Shown: positions 48,171-64,000 of the stretch, in pieces
Position numbering within the stretch: position 1 is the stretch's first letter
How the letters are laid out: every line of letters begins with the position of its first letter
DNA from: Eledone cirrhosa
Lineage: Eukaryota
DNA length: 64,000 bases
Direction of reading: 5' to 3'
NCBI GenBank assembly: GCA_964016885.1
Contig: OZ024740.1
Location: forward strand, 11,346,001-11,410,000
Notes under the pieces: model-generated
What the model was told of the DNA's origin: nothing
The model's input: the letters and a program-made list of their open reading frames with translations, nothing else
Databases searched by the model: none
Translations under genes and position numbers: made by a program

Positions 48171-48772
48171 TATGGTGGTGATGGTGATGGTGGTGATGGT
48201 GGTGGGGATTGTGCTGGTGGTGTTGGTGATGATGATAGTGTTGGTGGTGGTGGTGATTGTGGTGATGATAGTGGTGGTGGTGATGATGATAGTGGTGGTG
48301 GTGGTGGTAGTGATAGTGGTGGTCGTGGTCCTGGTGGTGGTGGTGATGATAGTGGTGGTGGTGGTGGTGATGATGATAGTGGTGGTGGTGGTGATGGTGA
48401 TTGTGGTGGTGGTGGTGGTGGTAGTGATAGTGGTGGTCGTGGTCCTGGTGGTGGTGGTGGTGGTGGTGATGATAGTGGTGGTGGTGATGATAGTGGTGGT
48501 GGTAGTGGTGATGATGATAGTGGTGGTGGTGGTGATGGTGATTGTGGTGGTGGTGGTGGTGGTAGTGATAGTGGTGGTTGTGGTCCTGGTGGTGGTGGTG
48601 GTGGTGGTGGTGTTGGTGATGATAGTGGTGGTGGTGGTGGTGGTGGTGGTGATGATAGTGGTGGTGGTGGTGGCGATGATGATAGTGGTGGTGGTGGTGA
48701 TGCACAAGGAAGGGCAACAGAAATAACGCCACCACCACCGCCACCACCACTATCACCACCACCACCACCACT
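48171..48772. repeat. Degenerate (GGT)n/(GAT)n compound microsatellite, followed by a short inverted (ACC)n tract at 48729-48772
   Basis: ggtggtggtgatgatagtggt runs. The marker ggtagtgatagtggtggt(c/t)gtggtcctgg occurs three times (~48306, 48420, 48561). Confidence 0.93.
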
Positions 48773-49016
48773 ACATGTCTTGTGTTCACCTTCTATTCGG
48801 TTTGTTTACTTCGTTTTTTCCTCTTTCCCTTTTTTCTTTCTTCCTCTCTCTTCACTATCAATTCTTTCCTCCGTGGCCTTTTGATGGATAAAAGGCCTCG
48901 GGCGCGCTGCCGATCGATGCCCTGTTTTTAAGCGCCGAAACATATCTATGATCCGCAGTAATCAGCTGATGAAGGGCTACTTTGCTTCTCTTGTTTATGT
49001 CCCTATTACCATCTTA

Positions 49017-49050
<34 letters not shown>

Positions 49051-49317
49051 GGAAAAAATGAAACGAAATTTCATTTCTCACTCTTAGTACGGCTGTTACT
49101 TAAATATAAGTATGTATACGTACATACATATATGTATACAGACGTACAGTAGTATGTATATATATATACATACATGCACACATATATATATATATGTACG
49201 TATGGATTCACCGAACATTTATTATAATGCTCGGTGTGTTTGTAAACAAACATCCCGAATTAAGCCGTACAGTGTCAAGCAACCATCGTTGCTCATTTGT
49301 TCAACACTGACAAAGGA

Positions 49318-49360
49318 ACGCTGTACTAGTTTCAAGCTTATTAGCTATCGTCAGCAACGT
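49318..49360 (-). ncRNA. Minimal type I hammerhead ribozyme (family A)
   Basis: Minus strand reads ACGUUG CUGACGA UAGCU AAUA AGCUU GAAA CUAG UA^ CAGCGU: 6-bp stem I, canonical core, 4-bp stem II closed by U.U, palindromic stem III ACUAGU, GUA triplet. Confidence 0.88.
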
Positions 49361-49872
49361 ATACCTTCCTGCCAGATGGTTGAACGTCTGAAAGTATATA
49401 CCTTCCTTATGCATATTAACGGCTGAGCAGCCAAATTTGTATATCCAGTGAGTTAATCGGCCGGGTTACCGAAAACGATAAACGGCAAAAATGAAATGAA
49501 ATTTCATTTCTCACTCTTAGTACGGCAGTTACTTAAATATAAGTATGTATACGTACATACATATATGTATACAGACGTACAGTAGTATGTATATATACAT
49601 ATATGCACACATATATATATGTACGTATGGATTCACCGAACATTTATTATAATGCTCGGTGTGTTTGTAAACAAACATCCCGAATTAAGCCGTACAGTGT
49701 TTAGCAACCATCGTTGCTCATTTGTTCAACACTGACATTCATTTTTTCCGTTTATCGTTTTCGGTACCGCGGCCGATTAACTCACTCGATATGCAAATTA
49801 GGCTGCTCCGCCGTTAATATGCATAAGGAAGGTATATATTTTCAGACGTTCAACCATCTGGCAGGAAGGTAT

Positions 49873-49915
49873 ACGTTGCTGACGATAGCTAATAAGCTTT
49901 AAACTAGTACAGGGT
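49873..49915 (+). ncRNA. Hammerhead family A, inactivated copy
   Basis: acgttg ctgacga tagctaataagctt TAAA ctag ta caggg: G12 is mutated to U. Confidence 0.75.
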
Positions 49916-50118
49916 TCCTTTGTCAGTGTTGAACAAATGAGCAACGATGGTTGCTAGACACTGTACGGCTTAATTCGGGATGTTTGTTTACAAACACACC
50001 GAGCATTATAATAAATGTTCGGTGAATCCATACGAACATATATATATGTGTGCATGTATGTGTATATATATACATACTACTGTACGTCTGTATACATATA
50101 TGTATGTATGTATACATA

Positions 50119-50192
<74 letters not shown>

Positions 50193-50425
50193 TTAGAAAC
50201 ACACAGATACATGCGGACACACACATATATACATGAATGCATCCGCACCCAACTGTGAGTTAAGGGTGCCAACTTCACCGATGTTGCTCAATGAATGACT
50301 GGGACAGACCAATTCAGTTGAACCAGACTGAACCAGTATCAGAGTTAAAAATACATTATGAAGAGAGAAGAAACATTTAGATATAATTAGTAATAAAATG
50401 TATCATACCTAAACTGTTCCTAAAT

Positions 50426-50515
50426 TCCTCGACTACGTAGTTTCGTGGCATAAACAAAAACAATATATCATAAAGACATAGAGTCCTTGCGAGGTCTGCC
50501 GACTTATCAAGAGGA
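50426..50515 (-). ncRNA. Hammerhead family B (U3-A8 variant), inverted copy
   Basis: Reverse complement of 51348-51437 with core and stems intact. Confidence 0.8.
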
Positions 50516-51347
50516 TACCTCATTTTACTAGTCTCAAGAACGCGTCTACACGACGTGAGAAAGAATCCCAAAAGGCGGAGGGGGAGATAGTCACGCGATA
50601 TAACGGTCGAGAAACAGAGCTAAGCCTCTTATAACCCCGAAGAAAATACCACGGAGGCGGAGGGGGTATTTATATCGAGGCCGTAGAAGAGGTGGCGAAG
50701 AAGGCGAGAAGTATGAGTAATGGAAGCTATCCAGCTGTCCCCACACTTCAAAGATTGCTCGACCAGAGGGAGTTATTAACAATATATTTGGAAACACACA
50801 GATACATGCGGACACACACATATATACATGAATGCATCCGCACCCAAGGAGCAGTTTAGGTATGATACATTTTATTACTAATTATATCTAAATGTTTCTT
50901 CTCTCTTCATAATGTATTTTTAACTCTGATACTGGTTCAGTCTGGTTCAACTGAATTGGTCTGTCCCAGTCATTCATTGAGCAACATCGGTGAAGTTGGC
51001 ACCCTTAACTCACAGTTGGGTGCGGATGCATTCATGTATATATGTGTGTGTCCGCATGTATCTGTGTGTTTCTAAATATATTGTTAATAACTCCCTCTGG
51101 TCGAGCAATCTTTGAAGTGTGGGGACAGCTGGATAGCTTCCATTACTCATACTTCTCGCCTTCTTCGCCACCTCTTCTACGGCCTCGATATAAATACCCC
51201 CTCCGCCTCCGTGGTATTTTCTTCGGGGTTATAAGAGGCTTAGCTCTGTTTCTCGACCGTTATATCGCGTGACTATCTCCCCCTCCCCCTTTTGGGATTC
51301 TTTCTCACGTCGTGTAGACGCGTTCTTGAGACTAGTAAAATGAGGTA

Positions 51348-51437
51348 TCCTCTTGATAAGTCGGCAGACCTCGCAAGGACTCTATGTCTTTATGATATAT
51401 TGTTTTTGTTTATGCCACGAAACTACGTAGTCGAGGA
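51348..51437 (+). ncRNA. Type I hammerhead ribozyme family B, U3-A8 core variant, long stem II
   Basis: UCCUC UUGAUAA GUcGGCA..(~45 nt)..UGCCAC GAAA CUACGUAG UC^ GAGGA: 5-bp stem I, palindromic stem III ACUACGUAGU, GUC triplet. Confidence 0.82.
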
Positions 51438-51506
51438 ATTTAGGAGCAGTTTAGGTATGATACATTTTATTACTAATTATATCTAAATGTTTCTTCTCTC
51501 TTCATA

Positions 51507-51540
<34 letters not shown>

Positions 51541-51544
<4 letters not shown>

Positions 51545-53047
51545 ATACTTTGGGAGGGTCATGTTGCCAATAAGAAACACACGCACCAGTTGCTTTCACT
51601 TCAATTTATTATAATAAATTTATAAATTTAGGAATTTATAAATTTCCTGTTGGTTGGTTGGTTCCACAACCAGATGGTTGTTTATATATTGTCAAAGTTC
51701 TTTCGTCACACATTCTGTGACCTCTTCAGTGACTGGGGGTTCTTTTCTTTGTTTTTGTGCCTCTCCTTTGTTCTGTCCTACGCCATCTTGTTTTTGTGTG
51801 TGTGTGTTGTTTGCTTAGTTTGCGCATGTGTTACATCCGGGTGTCTGTGTGTGTTTATATTCGTTTATTTATTTGTTTATTTACTTGTTACTGGTTGGTT
51901 GTTTGTTCTATGTGCGTGTGTGTTTTCATTTTGTCCTTAATTGTAAGTTGTGATGTTGCTGTTCCACTCATGTTTTCTATTTAATTTTGGTTGTAATTCA
52001 TTTATGTTTATTGCCTCTGTGATTTGTCTAAACATTGCGTCTTTTCTGTGTGTAGATTCTATTTTTATTTCTATGTTCTCTAATTTACCCTTATGTTCTA
52101 TTTTAGCATGTTGGTAGAGTACAGATGATTCTTTACTATCTTGAAGGTCTCGCCAGTGTTCATTTATCCGTTCCCCTATACTACGAGCTGTCTCAACTAT
52201 GTACACTATATTTTTATCTCTACATTCTCCTTCAGTACATCTTATGCTATATACTACATTTCTAGTTTTACAGTTAATATGGGGGCTTAATTTACAGATT
52301 ATACATTTCTTATCTATACAGGGAGGTCTTTGAAAAGGGTGTCTTGCTAATAAGTGTTTTTATGGAGGTACCTGGTCTTTCTACTATCTTAATATTGAGT
52401 TTATGTTTATCTAGGGTCCTTCTAAATTTGTAAGCTAATTCACCTCTAGGGGTTGTATCGATGAACATTACACTCTGGTATTTATTGCTATCATACCATG
52501 AGTTTATTCTATTAGCCTTATTCCTAGTTCTTTCTATTCTATTCCAAAATGTGTTCCTATACAAGGAGCAGGTCCCATTTGTGTCATTATTTACCATTTT
52601 TTTCCCATTTGGTTCTGGCTCCTCTATACACTCTGATTTTATCTCTCTGATTGTAACCAGAGAACTGCATACGGTGGATGAAGTGTTGTATGTGTCTCTC
52701 TAGTTCTTCAGGGTTGCACATGCGGGACACGTTTCTCATCACCCGTACCAAATCCGCAATCAGTATGTTCATTTTGGTATGGTCCGAAACAGCTGAGTTT
52801 CGGTGGATCAGATAATTGGAAGTCATGGGTTTGGCATAATGGGAATGGATAATTTGTTTTTGGTTATTAATGGTATCTAACCAGAGCTCTGTGTCTAGTA
52901 CAGGTTATCGATGGTTGGGGTGTTTGCTTGGGTAGTCTATAGTAACTCTCATACTCTGGTGGATGGAGTTAACTATTTGCTGGATGCTTTCCATGAAGTG
53001 TTGTATGTGTCTCTCTAGTTCTTCAGGGTTGCACATGCGGGACACGT
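51541..53047 (-). mobile_element. Penelope-like retroelement, 5'-truncated inverted copy (RT C-terminal part, GIY-YIG, 3' UTR), frameshifted
   Basis: Minus-strand ORF pieces 52587-52826, 52310-52597 and 51937-52206 match the + copy protein. The 3' end abuts (TA)n at 51540. Confidence 0.93.
51691..51733 (-). ncRNA. Hammerhead of the PLE 3' UTR, inverted copy
   Basis: Reverse complement of 54803-54845. Confidence 0.72.
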
Positions 53048-53080
53048 AGATAATTATTACTATATGTATAGTAATATATA

Positions 53081-54613
53081 CTTAAACTTACCTATAGTAA
53101 TAATTATCTAGACACATATGACCTTAGCAACCTGTGCCCTACAAGACCAGCAAGAGGCAGACCACCTACCATTACCTCAATGGCCAAGGAAACCCACACA
53201 GATAGATGGAACGGGTAGACCAGAGCCATACGGACCCCCGAAAAGCACGATGAACTAAAGAAAATGATTGCACATGCGGTGGGGGCCAGCATAAAATTAA
53301 CGCTTAAGGAACATATGTTCAAATTTAATGGAAAAACATATGGCCAAGAGGAGGGAGCAGCCATTGGTGTTAGCATTGCAGGTGACATAGCTAACTTATT
53401 CATGGTATGGTGGGACAGTAGACTTAAACTTAAACTTAAAGAACAATTAGAAGACCCCTTAACCCTGATAATGTACTCCCGCTACGTTGATGATATAAAC
53501 ATCTTAGTTAAAACACCCCCACTAGAGAACAGTCAAGAATTAGAGAAAAACACAATGGAAAGCATCCAGCAAATAGCTAACTCCATCCACCAGAGTATTA
53601 GAGTTACTATAGACTACCCAAGCAAACACCCCAACCATCGATTACCTGTACTAGACACAGAGCTCTGGTTAGATACCATTAATAACCAAAAACAAATCCT
53701 CCATTCCCATTATGCCAAACCCATGACTTCCAAATATCTGATCCACCAAAACTCAGCTGTTTCGGACCATACCAAAATGAACATACTGATTGCGGATTTG
53801 GTACGGGTGATGAGAAACGTATCCCGCATGTGCAACCCTGAAGAACTAGAGAGACACATACAACACTTCATCCACCGTATGCAGTTCTCTGGTTACAATC
53901 AGAGAGATAAAATCAGAGTGTATAGAGGAGCCAGAACCAAATGGGAAAAAATGGTAAATAATGACACAAATGGGACCTACCCCTTGTATAGGAACACATT
54001 TTGGAATAGAATATAAAGAACTAGGAATAAGGCTAATAGAATAAACTCATGGTATGATAGCAATAAATACCAGAGTGTAATGTTCATCGATACAACCCCT
54101 AGAGGTGAATTAGCTTACAAATTTAGAAGGACCCTAGATAAACATAAACTCAATATTAAGATAGTAGAAAGACCAGGTACCTCCATAAAAACACTTATTA
54201 GCAAGACATACCCTTTTCAAAGACCTCCCTGTATAGATAAGAAATGTATAATCTGTAAATTAAGCCCCCATATTAACTGTAAAACTAGAAATGTAGTATA
54301 TAGCATAAGATGTACTGAAGGAGAATGTAGAGATAAAAATATAGTGTACATAGGTGAGACAGCTCGTAGTATAGGGGAACGGATAAATGAACACTGGCGA
54401 GACCTTCAAGATAGTAAAGAATCATCTGTACTCTACCAACATGCTAAAATAGAACATAAGGGTAAATTAGAGAACATAGAAATAAAAATAGAATCTACAC
54501 ACAGAAAAGACGCAATGTTTAGACAAATCACAGAGGCAATAAACATAAATGAATTACAACCAAAATTAAATAGAAAACATGAGTGGAACAGCAACATCAC
54601 AACTTACAATTAA
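53081..54613 (+). pseudogene. PLE reverse transcriptase plus GIY-YIG endonuclease, 5'-truncated, with in-frame stops at 53216 (TAG) and 54014 (TAA)
   Basis: Motifs FKFNGKTYGQEEGAAIG..ANLFM, YSRYVDD, LPVLD, HYAKP, the Cys-rich linker CIDKKCIICK..NCKT, and NVVYSIRC..C..YIGETAR..ERINEH..H..H..RQITEA. The inverted copy has GAA (Glu) where this copy has TAA. Confidence 0.93.
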
Positions 54614-54802
54614 GGACAAAATGAAAACACACACGCACGTAGAACAAACAACCAACCAGTAACATGTAAATAAACGAATATAAACACAAACAGACACCTG
54701 AATGTAACACATGCGCAAACTAAGCACACAACACACACACAAAAACAAGATGGCGTAGGACAGAACAAAGGAGAGGCACAAAAAACAAAGAAAAGAACCC
54801 CA

Positions 54803-54845
54803 GTCACTGAAGAGGTCACAGAATGTGTGACGAAAGAACTTTGAC
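54803..54845 (+). ncRNA. Minimal type I hammerhead in the PLE 3' UTR
   Basis: GUCA CUGAAGA G GUCACA GAAUG UGUGAC GAAA GAAC UU^ UGAC: 4-bp stem I, one extra G after A9, 6-bp stem II, very short non-palindromic stem III. Confidence 0.75.
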
Positions 54846-55051
54846 AATATATAAACAACCATCTGGTTGTGGAACCAACCAACCAACAGGAAATTTATAA
54901 ATTCCTAAATTTATGAATTTATTATAATAAATTGAAGTGAAAGCAACTGGTGCGTGTGTTTATTATTGGCAACATGACCCTCCCAAAGTATAACAATATC
55001 GGTTTCAACACACGTTTTCAGATAAAGAATCTTGCTAAACAAATTCAGAAA

Positions 55052-55094
<43 letters not shown>

Positions 55095-55348
55095 TGTAAT
55101 AAACAACATAAGGCAATTATTTCATTTACCAGTAAGCTCTGTAACATACATAGAGCACTCTTTTTTCCTGGACCTTTCCGACGGAATTACTTCATATATA
55201 TATATATATATTAGAAAGTGAGGTTTTTTTTACAAATTGAAAAATAACCGAGGTGTCCTACACGAGTGAAAGTATAAAGAAAAAGAGATGAAATCGAAAA
55301 TGCAACTGGAGTCTTATTTTTTTTTTAAATATATATATTTATTTGGTT

Positions 55349-55386
55349 CCTTTACCGGTTTTGCAGTTCTTCTGCTTTTCAAAAGG
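55349..55386 (-). ncRNA. Hammerhead family C, inactivated copy (GAAA to AAAA at a CpG)
   Basis: Reverse complement of 55478-55515 with tttcgc changed to ttttgc. Confidence 0.75.
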
Positions 55387-55477
55387 TGAGTTGACATGGA
55401 GAGTCTGTGGTTTTTCTCACATCTGGTGAGAAAAATGTGAGATGTGAGAAAAACCACAGACCCTCCATCTCAACTCA

Positions 55478-55515
55478 CCTTTTGAAAAGCAGAAGAACTG
55501 CGAAACCGGTAAAGG
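55478..55515 (+). ncRNA. 38-nt minimal type I hammerhead family C, U3-A8 variant
   Basis: CCUU UUGAAAA GCAG AAGAA CUGC GAAA CCGG UA^ AAGG: all three stems pair perfectly; palindromic stem III ACCGGU. Confidence 0.87.
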
Positions 55516-55583
55516 AACCAAATAAATATATATATTTTTTAAAAAAAATAAGACTCCAGACTCCAGTTGCATTTTCGATTTCA

Positions 55584-55649
<66 letters not shown>

Positions 55650-55771
55650 TTAGTTAAGCAAAATAGGACCACGAATTTCACAAGGAAGACATTAAAAGAT
55701 TGTCAAAATATTTTAGTTTGATGTAAGGAATGTAGAGAATAATAATAATAATATTAATAATAATAATGTCT

Positions 55772-55890
55772 GTTTACAATTGTTTCGCTACTCCATATAA
55801 TATTTCTGGATCAGATGACTATATATCATTATTTATCTGGTTCAGTTGAAAATAATTAACATATTTAAAAACAGAGCGGCTCATCGGAAC
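55772..55890 (-). ncRNA. Hammerhead-like motif family D (core CCGAUGA, ~95-nt stem II region)
   Basis: Minus strand GUU CCGAUGA GCcGCUCUG...UGGAGUaGC GAAA CAAUUG UA^ AAC; palindromic stem III ACAAUUGU; stem I only 3 bp. Confidence 0.62.
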
Positions 55891-56077
55891 TTCAAAGGAA
55901 TAAATTAAAATAAGGAGATACCCATAGGCAGATCTCACACAATGCAGCCTCGACAGATGAATACTGCTTGATTATGGCTGACAACTGATACAACCAGGTC
56001 ACCATAGTGAAATACCAATATATGGAACATTACATTATGTAACATTCTCTCCTTATTTTAATTTATATTCCTTTGAA

Positions 56078-56196
56078 GTTCCGATGAGCCGCTCTGTTTT
56101 TAAATATGTTAATTATTTTCAACTGAACCAGATCAATAATGATATATAGTCACCTGATCCAGAAATATTATATGGATTAGCGAAACAATTGTAAAT
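56078..56196 (+). ncRNA. Hammerhead-like motif family D, second arm
   Basis: gtt ccgatga gccgctctg...tggattagc gaaa caattg ta aat. Confidence 0.58.
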
Positions 56197-56499
56197 GGAC
56201 ATTATTATTATTAATATTATTATTATTATTCTCTACATTTCTTACATCAAACTAAAATATGTTGACAATCTTTTAATAATGTCTTCCTTGTGAAATTCGT
56301 GGTCTTGTTTTGCTTAACTAATGAATATTTCCAGCTCTGCGCGCCTAACTTCTGCATGAACCCAGCCACCTAGCTGCTTTCTACTGCATATTGCACATTG
56401 AGCACATGCCTTTACGCTTTGGCTTCTAACTAATTCACGAATCTCTCCTCTCTTATCTCCTTCTCTCCCTTTAAGATTGGTTACTCTTGAATTGTGTAT

Positions 56500-56755
56500 A
56501 TATATACAGTGTATTTTGCAATACACTGTATGCTTAATTAAAAGCATTTTGAAGACCTTACGCTATTGTTTTAGAGTAGTGACAGTCTCACTTACTTTAA
56601 ATTTTCAGCAAAAAGGGGGAGATAAAGCTTTATCTCCCCCTGTTTGCTGAAAATTTAAAGTAAGTGAGACTGTCACTACTCTAAAACAATAGCGTAAGGT
56701 CTTCAAAATGCTTTTAATTAAGTGTACAGTGTATTGCAAAATACACTATATATAC
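56500..56755. repeat. Spacer-less ~256-bp palindrome centred on AAAG|CTTT (56627/56628), element E
   Basis: Arms are reverse complements with few mismatches; each arm contains a further hairpin TACAGTGTATT-TTGC-AATACACTGTA. No convincing HHR seen. Confidence 0.9.
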
Positions 56756-56973
56756 ATTCCTATATATATCGCTATTTCAGAGCACCAATTCTAATATATA
56801 TATACACACATATATATATATATAATTATAAGTTTGAAGAACAGTCAGACAAAATATATCCAATTTTTCTTCTCCTTAGTAAAAATTAACTAGACAAATA
56901 ATCAATTAAACGGAGCTAAATCTAAAATGCAAGTTTGAAGAAAAATTGTATATCAACTTTACCAAAGTCCTTC

Positions 56974-57078
56974 TAGTCCTGACTATCGATAGTTTCACTC
57001 GTACTTTGTGGATATGTCCAATCCTGGTTATTATCCATGAGGTTTCGAGCTTCTAAAGAGACTCCCTCAAGAGGACTA
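56974..57078 (-). ncRNA. Degenerate hammerhead candidate (family F) in a ~350-bp fragment between (TA)n runs
   Basis: Minus strand GAAA CUAUCGAUAG UC^ AGGACUA with palindromic stem III and a 7-bp partner UAGUCCU upstream. The CUGANGA box is degenerate (CUUGAGG or UUUAGAA). Confidence 0.45.
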
Positions 57079-57212
57079 ACATTTCTACAGTGATCGCCGC
57101 CAGAAATAAATTCAAAATGGGTAAGAACTATCACGTGGTTAGCGGTCAGAGAAGGGTGGCAGGTATGTTTCCTGATATATATATATATACCCATTTTCTA
57201 CTAGCATTTCAA

Positions 57213-57274
57213 GGGGTCCGTCGAGCCGCAGATTACAGAGTCGAGTAAGATCGATACAGATTGAACCTTGAGTT
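57213..57274 (+). mobile_element. Fragment of a diverged relative of element H (5' half of its hammerhead)
   Basis: ggtccgtcgagccgcagattacagagtcgagtaagatcgatacagattgaaccttgag aligns with 58156-58213. Confidence 0.7.
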
Positions 57275-57293
57275 ATATATATATATATATATG

Positions 57294-57324
<31 letters not shown>

Positions 57325-57468
57325 ATGGAAGGAATTTGTAGTATACTTGAAGCATTGTATATGGTATAAAGAATTAAAAGTTTGAAAGCCACAACAATGC
57401 AGGTTTGGACGGGGATAATTAAATGGTAAGAAACTGGGGTTGTTTTTTTACCTTAATTTATTCATATG

Positions 57469-57506
57469 TCCTGATATTTCGAGATTAATATCTCTTCTTC
57501 CGAGGA
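57469..57506 (-). ncRNA. 38-nt minimal type I hammerhead family G (core CGGAAGA, extra A after A9) within a ~280-bp fragment (57327-57605)
   Basis: Minus strand UCCU CGGAAGA A GAGAU AUUA AUCUC GAAA UA UC^ AGGA; palindromic stem III AUAU. Confidence 0.72.
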
Positions 57507-57811
57507 AAATAAAGGAACTATTCCAGTGTCCGATGTGGCTTGTTATACACATATATAGTTGTAGGAACAAACGAAAGAGTAATCAAGATAATGTGGAAGT
57601 TGAGTATATATATATATCTAATATATAAATAATTAATAACAATATACCGTATTTGCCGGCCTATTGGACGCTCCCTCTTTTTTAAATTATATTTTACGTT
57701 ATATTTTGACGTTTATAGGCATTTTTATGGACCACATCAAATATTGGCAGTTTTTCACTCTCCGTGGGTTCTCTAGGAACATAACCCCCGCCAATACCGG
57801 GGGACTACTAT

Positions 57812-57886
<75 letters not shown>

Positions 57887-58007
57887 GTTGACGGGATTAG
57901 CATAAGGTTTCCCTGCTAGTACTGGGTTGCATCTCATATATATATATATATAATAAAATAAAATAAAAGAAGGACGAGTGGTTACTCCTTCATTACGTTT
58001 ATTAGTT

Positions 58008-58092
58008 GGTGACGCGCGTTTCGCCACCGATCAGCTCAAGGTTCGATCTGTATCGATCTTGCCCGACTCTGTAATCAATGGCTCTTCGAACC
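58008..58092 (-). ncRNA. Hammerhead family H (core YCGANGA, long stem II)
   Basis: Minus strand GGU UCGAAGA GCCAUUGAUU...GAUCGGUGGC GAAA CGCGCG UC^ ACC: 10-bp stem II base, palindromic stem III ACGCGCGU. Confidence 0.7.
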
Positions 58093-58155
58093 TCTTTGGT
58101 GGTAATGATAGAATTCTATCATTACCACCATGAAATCTATCATTACCACCAAAGA

Positions 58156-58240
58156 AGTCCGACGAGCCATTGATTACAAAGTCGGGCTAGATTGATACAG
58201 ATCGAACCTTGAGCTGATTGGTGGTGAAACGCGCATCACC
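58156..58240 (+). ncRNA. Hammerhead family H, second arm (core CCGACGA, CpG-decayed stems)
   Basis: agt ccgacga gccattgatt...gattggtggt gaaa cgcgca tc acc. Confidence 0.65.
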
Positions 58241-58394
58241 AACTAATAAACGTAATGACGGAGTAACCACTCGTCCTTCTTTTATTTTATTTTATTTTAT
58301 TATATATATATATGAGATGCAACCCAGTACTAGCAGGGAAACCTTATGCTAATCCCGTCAACTTCACACACATATATATATATATATATATATT

Positions 58395-59273
58395 TCGTTT
58401 CTGAATTTGTTTAGCAAGATTCTTTATCTGAAAACGTGTGTTGAAACCGATATTGTTATACTTTGGGAGGGTTATGTTGCCAATAAGAAACAAACGCACC
58501 AGTTGCTTTCATTCCAATTTATTATAAATTAAATTATAAATAAAAAAATTTTTTAAAAATGTATAATACAACCCCTAGAGGTGAACTAGCTTACAAATTT
58601 AGAAGGGCCCTAGATAAACTTAAACTAAATATTGAGATAGTGGAAAGACCAGGTACCTCCATAAAAACACTTATTAGTAATACATACCCTTTTCAAAGAC
58701 CTCCCTGTATAGATAAGAATATAATGTACATAGGTGAGACAGCTCGTATAGGAGAACGATTAAATGAACACTGGCGAAAGCTTCAAGATAGAAAAGACTC
58801 ATCAGTACTCCACCAACATGCTAAAATAGAACATAAGGGCAAATTAGAGAACATAGAAATAAAAATAGAATCTACACACAGAAAAGACGCAATGTTTAGA
58901 CAAATCACAGAGGCAATAAACATAAATGAACTCCAACCAAAATTAAATAGAAAACATGAATGGAATAGCAACATCACAACTTACAATTAAGGACAAAATG
59001 AAAACACACACGCACATAGAACAAACAACCAACCAGTAACATGTAAATAAACAAATAAAAACACAGAGACACCCGAATGTAACACATGCGCAAACTAAGC
59101 ACACAACACACACAAAAACAAGATGGCGTAGGACAGAACAAAGGAGTGGCACAAAACAAAGAAAAGAATCCCCGGTCACTGATGAGGTCACAGAATGTGT
59201 GACGAAAGAACCTTGACAATATATGAACAACCGTCCGGTTGTGGAACCAACCAGCCAACCGGAAATTTATAAA
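58395..59273. mobile_element. Third, more diverged PLE copy: 3' tail on - (58395-~58545) plus endonuclease and 3' UTR segment on + (58566-59273)
   Basis: ORF 58559-58990 matches 54080-54613 with a 32-codon deletion. 58395-58530 is the reverse complement of ~54915-55054. Confidence 0.92.
59175..59217 (+). ncRNA. PLE 3' UTR hammerhead, third copy (CUGAUGA core, U16.1 mutated to C)
   Basis: gtca ctgatga g gtcaca gaatg tgtgac gaaa gaac ct tgac. Confidence 0.68.
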
Positions 59274-59632
59274 AAATGTTATATATATATATATGTGTGT
59301 GAGTGTACAGATAAGTCGCTAGCAACATATACTTACAGACACACACACGCACTTTTTCCGCTTCGTATATATATGCGTATGTGTGCGCGCGCGCTTATTG
59401 TTTGTTTATGTTCCCTACTTCGCGGTTCGACAAATAGAGATCGATAAGACTTGATAAAATAACTGGTGGGTTCGATAAATATGCACACACACACACATAT
59501 TCATGAAGAGTGAGAGGTAGGGGGGACAAGCATGTTTTCAGTGTAGTACACGTATAGACACATAGTCACACACATGTACATAGACGTACACACACATATT
59601 CATTCATAAACACTGAGTTTTAGTGTTTATGA

Positions 59633-59735
59633 ATGAGTGTGTGCATGTGTATGAGTGTGTGCATGTGTATGAGTGTGTGCATGTGTATGAGTGTGTGCAT
59701 GTGTATGAGTGTGTGCATGTGTATGAGTGTGTGTG
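59633..59735. repeat. 18-bp tandem repeat (ATGAGTGTGTGCATGTGT) x ~5.5, preceded by a 14-bp-stem hairpin at 59601-59635
   Basis: Seen directly; it produces the ECVHVY repeat ORF. Confidence 0.9.
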
Positions 59736-60462
59736 TAAGAAACCGAGCCAGAGAGGGAGATTGTTTCGGTATTTATCAATGAGGATGCCTGTTTATAACC
59801 ACTCCCTCTGCCTTTTTATCTATCTATATATTCATCTATAGATATCTACCCTCTCATAGCTATGTGTACCCCTCTCTCTGTATCTATCTATTTATCCATC
59901 TATCTATGTAACTACCTATCCATCTATCTACATATCTATCTTCCTACCTATCTATATTCCCATACACACTGCGAGAGTGTCTATTTCACATATTCACACA
60001 AACATACACATTCACATACACACACCACATAACCACATACACGAACAAGTACAAACATATATGCATACGCACACGCAATCTGTCTCACATATTCATACAA
60101 ATACACACACCTACTATATTTCACACTCACACATAGATATCGATACACACTGACACAGTCATATACAGAGGTTTACTACAAACTATTATTGATTATATAT
60201 CATCAACCATGAAACAACTATCATCCCCACTGTTTATACATTTTCCGTTGTGATTTATAGTGGCGTGTGATATCAGATTATATATTTTCACTGATCTTTT
60301 TTCACTGAAAATTTATCTGCACATTTAGAGGTTACAGGTTAAATGTTAATATCTGACCGACTCTTTCTTTCTTCTTTCCCCACGCCGCCAAGTTGGGCCT
60401 TCAAAGATTGACGATGGCGACCGCCATAGCTTTCTGTTCTCAGTTTGTGTTGCTATTGCACG

Positions 60463-60880
60463 GACGCTGCATGGCTGTGTGGTTAAGAAGTTCGTTTCAT
60501 AGTCGTGAGGTTCTAGGTTTGGTTCTACAGTGTGGCAGACCTGTCAACTTTTCCCGGGGTATTTGCAATAGCCTTTGGGGTGGGTAAGAGATGTCTTTTG
60601 TGAAAATGAGTACAGCTTTCATTATGTAAAATCTCCCCATTTTGGGGCACATTTTTCATGTTTGGGTTTTTAGAGGTTGACAGGTCTGCCATCTTGGGAA
60701 AGTGTCCTCCAGCTCTACTGTACCGTACTGAATCTCCCTGAGAATGACACTAATATTCACTTATTTTCACTCTAATAAAAGATGGACTACATGTGCAATT
60801 CAAACATCCAGCTTTGTCACGCTGAATTTCCTAGAGAATTGTGTTAAGGGTACCCATATTTGTGGCATATTTAACCAAAA
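60463..60880 (+). mobile_element. Degenerate tRNA-derived SINE, interrupted by a MITE
   Basis: A-box-like tggctgtgtggttaagaag, degenerate B-box region, cttgggaaagtgtc, and later gtcacgctgaatttcctagagaattgtgttaagggtac. Resembles octopus SINEs as recalled. Confidence 0.6.
60534..60690. mobile_element. MITE-like element, 157 bp, with perfect 15-bp terminal inverted repeats GGCAGACCTGTCAAC
   Basis: TIRs at 60534-60548 and 60676-60690 split the SINE motif gtgg|catcttggg. Target-site duplication is ambiguous. Confidence 0.75.
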
Positions 60881-60919
60881 TAAGCCAGATGAATTCTTCA
60901 ACACAACTGTATTACACAG

Positions 60920-61470
60920 AAAAATGGCAACCATCAACCACATAGATATAAAGGTAAAATATGTAATATCAGTCATAGATGAAATGAAACCAAATTAGCA
61001 GCTAGCCCTGATGGTCTCCCAGCAATCCTAAAAACCTGCAAGTGAACATTAGCAAAAACAATGCATATACTCTTACAAAGATTCCTTGCAAATGGTAAAC
61101 TAAAAAAAGGCATAATATATCCTATCTATAAAAGAGGAAGCAGAGTAGGTGCTAAAAACTACTGGCCTGTCTTCCTGACCTCACATACCAGCAAAGTCAT
61201 GGAACGAATCATCAGAAGGAAACTGATAATTTTGCCCAGGTAGAAGTTGTCTTACGCAGCTCTTACAGCATTATGACTGAATACTCAAAGAGTTGCTAGA
61301 CAGTTTGAACGTAGATGTGATATATCTTGACTTGTAAAAGCCTTGAACAAGGTTGATCATGGAACGAAATTCACAAACTACATAGCTGGATCACTAGGTG
61401 AATGGCTTCATGACTTCTCGAAAGAAGTGTCAATAACAAGAGGCATGTCCCAGAGAACTGTCTAGAGGTC
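60920..61470 (+). pseudogene. Degraded CR1-like LINE reverse-transcriptase fragment
   Basis: Translated motifs A.SPDGLPA.ILK, IYPIYKRGSR..AKNYWPVFLTSHTSKVMERII, GRSCLTQLL, VDVIYLD..KALNKVDH, with stops and frameshifts. Confidence 0.85.
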
Positions 61471-61614
61471 GCTACTGTAAAGAAACAACAGCACATGTTC
61501 GGCCATTCCCCTGTATCAAGAAAATGACAAGTTTTTTCCAAGGAAGCTTTTTGATTTTTTAATTTAAAGATTTGTTGAGGAACTTTGAATGTTTTCAAGT
61601 TTTTATAGGTTTTC

Positions 61615-61726
61615 CTGTCTGAAGAGCTCAGGCTGTCACAACTGATAGTTCTCAGTGAAATATGTATAACGTCTGAAGAGCTCAGGCTATCACAATTGAT
61701 AGTTCTCAGTGAACTATGTATAACAG
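61615..61726 (+). ncRNA. Two tandem 54-bp copies of a decayed minimal hammerhead (family I)
   Basis: CUGU CUGAAGA GCUcAGG CUAUCA CAAU UGAUAG uUCUcAGU GAAA UAUGUA UA^ ACAG; units 61617-61670 and 61671-61724. Stem III AUAUGUAU is one CpG transition from the palindrome AUACGUAU. The second copy has GAAC. Confidence 0.68.
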
Positions 61727-61789
61727 AGTTTTGAATAAACCTGAATCAACTGATTATGGCCCCCGATATTTTAATATTATATATATAAA

Positions 61790-61980
61790 GGGTGGTGAAT
61801 TGGCAGTATCGGTAGAGGGTCGGGTGCCGCCATGCTTTGACATATAGAGTTACGGCCCTTGGCATTCTGAGTTCAAATCCCGCTGAGGTTAACTTTGCCT
61901 TTCACCCTTACGGGGTCGATAAAATAAAGTACCATTGATGCACTGGAATAATTGCTGGCCTGGTGCCAAAAATAAAAACA
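61790..61980 (+). mobile_element. tRNA-derived SINE (octopus OR/CORE-type as recalled)
   Basis: A box tggcagtatcgg, B box gagttcaaatccc, central aactttgcctttcacccttacggggtcgataaaataaagtacca, tail ggcctggtgccaaaa. Confidence 0.72.
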
Positions 61981-62074
61981 ATTACTATATACATACATAT
62001 ATATATACATATATATATATGCACATACATATATATATATATATACACATACATATGTATATACAGACATATAT

Positions 62075-62363
62075 CTCTATATATAAAACTAATGTTGTCT
62101 GTGTGTGTGTGTCATCATTTTTGCAAAGTCTATACAAATCCACATTTCTACTCCAATTGACTTCAAACTTGCATTTATATATTCCTTGCGGTCTAAAGAT
62201 ACTAATTGCCACTTTTATTTTTCAATTTTCTGTTGTTAAAGGGGTGTTAGGCGTCGGTTATCGATCGCCGTCGAGCCCTTATAATATCTGTCTGTATGTC
62301 TGGCTGTCTGACTAACGACATTCTGACGAACACGTCATTGCTGACGTATTATCTTCGCTACAT

Positions 62364-62365
<2 letters not shown>
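62075..62365 (+). mobile_element. Possible non-autonomous Helitron-like remnant
   Basis: Starts TCTATATATAAAA..gtctgtgtg, then ccaattgacttcaaact, resembling invertebrate Helitron 5' ends. No clear 3' CTRR. Confidence 0.3.
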
Positions 62366-62440
<75 letters not shown>

Positions 62441-62457
62441 CTTATATATACATATAT

Positions 62458-62640
62458 ATCATCATCATCATCATCATCATCGTTTAACGTCCATCTTCCA
62501 CGCTTGCATGGATTTGGACGGGAAATTTTCCCACTTGAGGCAAGATTGGTTGTCTTGCTCGTGTAGGACTGTCTGGCGGGTTTTCTACGGCTGGATGCCC
62601 TTCCTAACACCAACCACATTTACAGTGTGGGGCTGGGAAC
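62458..62640 (-). mobile_element. SINE 3' half with RTE-like tail ending in (GAT)n
   Basis: Minus strand GGTTGGTGTTAGGAAGGGCATCCAGCCGTAGAAA central motif and tail ...gaagatggacgttaaacgatgatgat; recalled from mollusc SINEs. Confidence 0.65.
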
Positions 62641-62854
62641 TTTTTACCGTGTTACCTACACGGCCACATTACAGCATGGACTGTGTGTTTTTTTGTCGTG
62701 ACACCTACACGACCTCATTTGTTTCGGACTATATATACATATACACACACATATATACACATATACATATATACATATGCAAACATATACACATATATAG
62801 ATATACACATATACACATATATAAATATACACATAAAAATATATGTATATATAT

Positions 62855-62916
<62 letters not shown>

Positions 62917-62922
<6 letters not shown>

Positions 62923-63552
62923 TGCCCCCTCGTCATCGAGTATGGCTCTTGCACGAGAAAAAAAAAATATATATATATATATTAATAACAATAATAATGA
63001 TTTCATTTATTAGCCACAAGGGCCGACATAATAATAATAACAACAATAATAATAACGATAACAACAACAACAATAATAATATACATATATATATATATAC
63101 ACACACACGCACACACATAAACATATCTATACACACACACACACGATAGCAACTAACAGCGCTGCGATCGAATGTGGCTTTTTAGCCCAGCCAATGATCT
63201 AAAATGTCTTGCACTGAGTCGGGAACCAAAACATTCACTGGGAATAGTCGACTGTGGTTGGAGTTCGTGTACTTTTGCATGTCGCTTGAGCCCTCCTGCT
63301 GATTTACATTCTCTACCACATGTTTGGCAAGCATGATGAATAGCATCTCCAACTGCAGCCTGGTAGTCAACCACTGGTCCTACTTTATGACTGCGAAGAT
63401 GACTTTCGAGTCCAGCTTTGCTTAGGCAGAGTCTCGCACAGACGCTGCATGTCAGCACCATAGGAGGACCCTCACCGTCTGGAAGCAACAGCAATGCCCT
63501 TCCTCACATCCCGCTTTACTTTCTCGTATGCGATTCGAGATGCCTCAAAAGC

Positions 63553-63553
<1 letters not shown>
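62917..63553 (-). mobile_element. RTE-clade LINE 3' end: C-terminal C2H2-like repeats (63153-63553) and probable 3' terminus (62917-62957), split by microsatellites
   Basis: [18 protein letters not shown], then [42 protein letters not shown] and a degenerate third FRSLAGLKSHIRS. The CxxCxRxCxSxxGLxSHxRxH motif is typical of RTE/BovB ORF ends. Confidence 0.72.
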
Positions 63554-63879
<326 letters not shown>

Positions 63880-64000
63880 CGAAGGAAATGTGGTAAGGAA
63901 CCAGGTGGACCATAACGCACCAAAGTACTCAATACTTGAGGTAGTAGAGTGGGTAATAGGAACCAGTAAGACCCCGACAGCTGAGCTCAAGCCGTTTCGA

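Follow-up and report, generated by a model that had tools for sequence, protein, structure and literature searches.

Positions 1-48700 of the window (the whole 64,000-nt stretch of DNA that was analyzed) hold a 47-kb simple-repeat array with a 21-24-nt period and extreme strand skew. Its minus strand is open for thousands of codons, encoding Thr/Pro/Ser/Leu-rich (mucin-like) sequence and then Pro- and Thr-rich repeats; two readings of the array are possible, a satellite or a very large repetitive exon. From 48.7 kb onward the DNA is AT-rich and animal-like, with many (TA)n tracts and many inverted insertions whose arms stand head to head. At least eight such insertions (A-H), from seven unrelated families, are strung on (TA)n tracts between 49020 and 59300. 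Hammerhead-like motifs are present in seven of the eight (F has no ribozyme), and we therefore regard 49020-59300 as a hotspot for the insertion of Penelope-like elements (PLEs).

Element C (51537..55054) is a 5'-truncated PLE with RT and GIY-YIG sequence in head-to-head arms. Its hammerhead (cut after 54841) has the same orientation as the ORF, and a tail of 55 nt is present on one side only. Its profile matches (RT, E 7e-4; GIY-YIG, E 1.4e-4) each fall just under the Pfam cut-offs. The homologue search found 71 proteins, the best with 45-54% identity and none informatively named, and a PDB search with the RT fragment gave only one weak match, to an unrelated RT. The layout conforms to that described for PLEs in the available portions of PMC8557442 and PMC3846280. 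Element C fixes the polarity and shows the probable type of mobilizer. Between its arms the junction (52993-53110) is complex, with a 55-nt extra fragment and a 64-nt imperfect palindrome.

Several other features of the locus contain hammerhead-like or palindromic sequence. Element D (55213-55585) belongs to a second U3-A8 family, unrelated to element B, with UUGAAAA at 55482 and a palindromic helix III. Elements E and G (55643-56328; 57883-58366; also 57219-57270) have C at core position 4 (CCGANGA), a change that is found in both arms of E and is common to G, and their hammerhead-like motifs have very long loop II insertions. The U4C change is known from a viroid (PMC3088659, partial text). 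Element H (58372-59273) is an internally deleted copy of family C. On the element map its two arms adjoin (+60, +68), and its tail is on the short arm, a signature that resembles twin priming, a term from L1 work. A near-perfect 260-nt palindrome at 56498-56757, which lacks both a spacer and a hammerhead, may represent two short post-cut fragments. A 54-nt tandem duplication at 61617-61724 takes in one hammerhead almost exactly: it begins 2 nt ahead of the core and ends 2 nt past the predicted cut at 61668, so that its breakpoint lies beside the cut site. By eye, 60830-61480 resembles a decayed non-LTR retrotransposon RT fragment.

Element B and its hammerhead motif

Element B (50186-51511) lies within (TA)n and, by self-alignment, consists of two head-to-head arms of one non-coding unit, with a period of 595 nt in the + arm and the - arm alike. 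Unit positions are counted from the predicted hammerhead cut (after 51432 in the + arm; after 50431 in the - arm). The right arm (50847..51511, +) runs from unit +10/+11 through a full lap to ~+77/+80, which is 595 nt plus 70-71 nt of redundancy, and the left arm (50186..50847, -) runs from +179/+180 through a full lap to ~+245 (595 nt plus 67 nt). The terminal repeat of the + arm is 71 nt at 100% identity (50847-50917 vs 51442-51512), and that of the - arm is 67 nt at 98.5% identity, with one mismatch (50186-50252 vs 50781-50847). A previous sequence-only reading had described arms of ~1.1 units with terminal redundancy and different permutation points, and the alignment agrees. It had also placed the + arm start 9-10 nt past the cut, where we find it; the - arm, however, starts at +179/+180.

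The two arms meet 5' end to 5' end at 50846..50848, where they share one nucleotide, the A at 50847, as microhomology. Since this A fits either arm, the + arm may start at +10 or +11. The outer ends of both arms run into (TA)n; the left tract (50110..50185) is common to B and element A, the right tract (51510..51540) to B and element C, and a target-site duplication would be masked by this microsatellite. The arms are of near-equal length (662 nt for - and 665 nt for +) and differ at three of 595 positions (+14, +236, +450). The near-identity of the arms, which had been taken as a sign of a young insertion, is upheld, and the insertion is young in relative terms, since arm divergence is ~0.5% here against ~5% in element A.

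The unit is strongly self-paired, with z -6.98 when folded as linear RNA (0/100 shuffles as good) and z -6.1 when folded as a circle (40 shuffles). One predicted RNA hairpin (50847..50899, +; unit +10 to ~+62) has its 5' foot at the right-arm junction. A TATA-like motif with GC-rich boxes around it (51189..51196, +; unit +352) lies ~150 nt 5' of the hammerhead and, from its sequence, is possibly an internal promoter. A coding or rolling-circle ORF was considered and rejected: the longest stop-free stretch in the concatenated unit is only 87 aa in sense and 72 aa in antisense. BLAST found no similarity of B to element C or to anything else in 48.7-64 kb, and thus none there to the pLTR of an autonomous partner.

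The B motif is a type I hammerhead, for which we predict self-cleavage at C17. In the right arm it occupies 51348..51437 (+), with the predicted cut after C17 at 51432; the identical left-arm copy is at 50426..50515 (-), with the cut after 50431. Helix I has five proximal pairs between its 5' strand (51348-51352) and 3' strand (51433-51437). The core consists of UUGAUAA at 51353-51359 with a U3-A8 pair, GAAA at 51419-51422, and a GUC cut triplet, and it fits the hammerhead consensus YUGANRA / GAAA / UH with a Watson-Crick 3-8 pair. Helix II is bulged and contains a long internal hairpin, and helix III is fully palindromic (3 bp plus a tetraloop). A constrained fold closes helices I, II and III at 3.3 kcal/mol above the free fold (131 nt).

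A descriptor built for the B hammerhead, composed once the motif was already known, matched 0/5000 dinucleotide shuffles. It found no match on the opposite strand of the unit, which disposes of a ribozyme there. A broader hammerhead descriptor gave eight matches in 48700-64000 (15.3 kb), against a mean of 0.01 in 100 block-shuffled controls. A stricter descriptor missed the B motif owing to the helix II bulge. Rfam gave no hammerhead match for B, whether at the gathering score or with E relaxed to 10, a negative of little power given that the canonical motifs of neighboring elements were missed too; its matches in the locus were hairpin and microsatellite noise only.

Neither the element type of B nor its U3-A8 core is new in kind, and U3-A8 is already a natural PLE variant that is active in vitro. 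The literature cited here and below by PMC or bioRxiv number is represented by partial texts. Natural covariation at 3-8 and earlier in-vitro activity of U3-A8 are stated in PMC3088659. About 1,300 U3-A8 motifs are reported from Schistosoma, from a search begun with a PLE, and pairs of hammerhead motifs 100-700 bp apart on opposite strands are noted (PMC4209133). The Schistosoma PLE hammerheads and the natural U3-A8 variants have the same compensatory core pair as B; B differs from the minimal U3-A8 motifs in its helix III of 3 bp and in a loop II that is long and structured.

In architecture, B is like the endonuclease-containing PLEs and their non-autonomous derivatives (PMC8557442, PMC3846280, PMC11167929). 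It is inverted, 5'-truncated and head-to-head with partial-tandem redundancy, it is inserted at (TA)n, and it carries a type I hammerhead with a palindromic helix III shortly upstream of its 3' ends. The hammerhead is in sense and shortly 5' of the 3' ends, as in neighboring element C, whose PLE layout B shares minus the ORF. B differs from PLEs in having no ORF and in that the 3' ends of its two arms lie ~166 nt apart, against a PLE tail of 30-40 nt; the one-sided tails of A and C are 55-60 nt. B is very probably a non-autonomous element mobilized by a PLE RT/endonuclease.

B also shares features with metazoan non-LTR retrozymes (PMC7229834; bioRxiv 10.64898/2026.07.22.740005), whose units are likewise non-coding, strongly self-paired, circularly permuted and several hundred nt long, have one type I hammerhead, and lie beside PLEs, their proposed mobilizers. 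Retrozymes form a tandem array, whereas B has ~1.1 units and one ribozyme in each of two inverted arms. Its 595 nt exceed the range of 170-400 nt given for circRNAs of invertebrates but fall inside the 51-972 nt of the 2026 survey. We do not file B as a non-LTR retrozyme because two tandem units, which define that class, are absent at this locus; it is best read as a PLE-mobilized, non-autonomous element with the look of a dispersed non-LTR retrozyme copy.

Junctions near the predicted hammerhead cut

The junction sample is 16 arms in the eight head-to-head insertions A-H (48.9-59.3 kb). Near its 3' end, an intact cut site is crossed by 13 of the 16 arms, the exceptions being those of F (no ribozyme) and the left arm of H (which starts at +68). 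Because of this read-through, uncleaved or re-ligated RNA appears to be the usual template. A second, upstream cut site is visibly reached by two arms only, and both stop at +10 to +12: the right arm of B (+10/+11) and the left arm of A (+12). No arm is seen to pass a second cut. Further second-site encounters may be hidden in D-H, so two of 16 is a count of visible cases.

Element A (49048..50110) is the comparator. Its unit is 425-433 nt and its hammerhead has a canonical C3-G8 core with the cut after 49324 (-). The left arm starts at +12 (49737) and the right arm at ~+260 (49738), overlapping the terminal 16-18 nt of the left arm. The partner arms of A and B thus both start far from the cut (~+260 in A; +179/+180 in the - arm of B). 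The earlier proposal of one and the same ~10-nt offset in two unrelated families is close to what we find, although the offsets are not equal (9-10 nt in B and 11 nt in A).

All probabilities calculated for the near-cut stops are post hoc, with n=2 and a window picked after inspection of the data. Under a constant stop rate, pooled from the remaining arms, the chance of both stops is 0.0004-0.002 (windows of 12-30 nt), or 0.0002-0.001 with one stop per insertion. With short elements only it is 0.003-0.018, the upper value coming from a 30-nt window at the most conservative rate. For the four arms of A and B, a uniform model gives 0.002-0.02. The near-equal lengths of the B arms have p ~0.02, in one element.

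The literature searched, which covers only a minority of subscription papers, does not describe any clustering of 5' junctions at the hammerhead cut, either in PLEs or in retrozymes. The available portions of PMC6765202, PMC8782182 and PMC3884650 contain nothing on such clustering. The junction offset is plausibly a clue to the role of PLE hammerheads, and one that is apparently so far unreported.

Template models

We tentatively favor a model, taken as a whole just short of probable, in which the near-cut arms of B and A mark the 5' end of a cleaved linear template. It builds on the observed architecture, motif and junction positions, from which we infer the cleavage, the form of the template and the trimming. 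A PLE protein would nick (TA)n and prime two cDNAs internally, at ~+77/+80 and ~+245 downstream of the hammerhead. Both B cDNAs would extend toward the RNA 5' end and then be joined 5' end to 5' end. The likeliest template would be a linear, more-than-unit transcript of a tandem master copy, cut at the upstream hammerhead and uncut at the downstream one. The downstream hammerhead must remain joined, since RT begins just 3' of it. A completed cDNA would end at the upstream cut and lose ~10 nt in end-joining (right arm of B, left arm of A), and the partner arms (left in B, right in A) would be ordinary premature stops. The minimal RNA that holds both B arms extends from +1 at the cut to ~+245 of the next unit; for A it is +1 to +276.

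Elements of this scheme have precedents. PLEs have inverted 5'-truncated arms, a (TA)n bias and tails (PMC8557442), their RT starts internally, and in vitro both target strands can be nicked and extended (PMC11167929). The HDV-like ribozyme of R2 is a functional analogue, in which the cut defines the template 5' end and genomic 5' junctions correlate with the cut sites (PMC3774820). When the template has no target homology, R2 insertions often lack a little of the 5' end, most truncations falling <50 nt from the end (PMC11331408). The link between cut and junction is established for R2, which has another ribozyme class and belongs to another RT clade; the texts searched show no such link for PLE hammerheads.

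Several observations go against the cleaved linear template. Passage of an intact cut site by 13 of 16 arms is one, although selection may account for it, because a more-than-unit cDNA needs a template that is intact at the downstream site. The model leaves the near-equal B arm lengths as a coincidence, and both near-cut junctions also lie at hairpin starts. Insertion by a reconstituted anole PLE was unaffected by hammerhead mutants, and the anole PLE RNA-seq had no reads beginning or ending at the cut, according to the available text of PMC11167929. Just one of nine Xenopus dimers cleaved in vitro (bioRxiv 10.64898/2026.07.22.740005).

Various sources of the ~10-nt offset and of the paired arms were rejected. 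An RT block at the outer edge of helix I is argued against because the near-cut junctions fall within the helix, which in A as in B is predicted to reach at least +20. Trimming of a cDNA 3' flap to a fold-back hairpin is weak as an explanation, given that the B cDNA end at +10 folds at only -2.2 kcal/mol (DNA parameters). Simple fold-back copying as the source of the second B arm fits F and G, but the B arms are not nested. The idea that an RT dimer generally couples the lengths of the two arms is not supported by A (690/373), C (1511/1945) or H (147/708).

The 5' truncations might instead be random or lie at hairpin feet, with hairpins that happen to occur ~10-13 nt past the cut in A and B; we consider this unlikely. 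That there are two cases only, found post hoc, is in keeping with it. Ranked by hairpin start, the near-cut junctions stand at 60/595 (B) and 72/620 (A), and B +179, at 12/595, is one of the strongest. Over the 16 arms, six starts rank in the top 12%, but ten have no hairpin at all. B +10 is not scored as an outermost helix foot once the upstream context is added, and the low stability of the cDNA end there as DNA also speaks against a hairpin. The double coincidence would still be unlikely under a several-fold hairpin bias (our estimate is ~0.01).

A circular template with limited overshoot is a slightly less probable reading, and again an unlikely one. Here the RT would go once around a retrozyme-type circRNA and stall ~65-70 nt into its own RNA:cDNA hybrid, so that B +10 would be the 3' start (~+77/+80) minus the overshoot. 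Such a circle, if strand displacement is limited, would yield near-equal arms and make +10 incidental. Both B arms are indeed one unit plus 67-71 nt from differing start points, and B is as highly structured as its z-scores indicate. Helix I is absent from the predicted circular MFE, which would protect a circle. Metazoan retrozymes produce abundant circRNAs (PMC7229834), and more-than-unit RT on circles was already proposed for PLEs (PMC4209133). Element A breaks the fixed overshoot, with a left arm that overshoots by ~260 nt and a right arm of less than one lap, and its +12 start becomes a chance event. An active hammerhead would still be needed to make the circle, though it would not set the junction.

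Use of a single template for both arms is improbable. Either a multimeric RNA would be twin-primed, or the first cDNA would fold back and be copied, with a jump over the terminal redundancy. The near-cut arm would in both cases be the 5'-most segment, ending at the RNA end (in one variant a transcription start or inherited master-copy boundary and not a cut), and the other start would arise by collision or fold-back. The overlapping arm starts of A, the contiguous arms of H, the fold-back centers in F and G, the known junction palindromes of PLEs (PMC3846280), and B identity that is similar within and between arms, as from one sequence, are in its favor, but the B arms are not nested, with a ~100-nt gap on a tandem RNA, and the sole TATA-like motif found, at +352, is distant from +10.

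A possible role of hammerhead cleavage in the PLE cycle

The proposal of the sequence-only reading, that cleavage sets the RNA 5' end, is partly supported: no other single reading accounts more simply for both near-cut junctions, and it outperforms crude chance models. Against it stand the post hoc nature of the two cases, the partner arms that start far from the cut, and a circular template that fits B equally well. The near-cut start in one arm each of A and B hints that the self-cut marks the start of the copied RNA; with n=2 it is not proof. For the further claim that U3-A8 is active in vivo, only the junction of B is informative, because A has a C3-G8 core; D is too short.

The function of PLE hammerheads has been called unclear and possibly parasitic (PMC8557442), and cleavage is dispensable in vitro in the sole reconstituted PLE (PMC11167929). 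At this locus, retrozyme-like units are inserted with the full PLE architecture, which fits the proposed mobilization of retrozymes by PLEs. It is possible, though doubtful, that PLE-mobilized elements preserve, across the genome, a fossil trace of hammerhead cleavage in vivo, with completed cDNAs ending ~10 nt past the upstream cut for canonical and U3-A8 ribozymes alike. If so, the ribozyme would set the template length and strip a promoter-proximal leader. A pile-up of junctions just past the cut across families would be evidence that cleavage takes place in vivo as part of the transposition cycle, and linear-cleaved and circular templates could then be told apart from genome sequence alone. 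Such pile-ups could also allow the activity of thousands of variant ribozymes, among them the C4-core motifs of this locus, to be assayed from genomes only.
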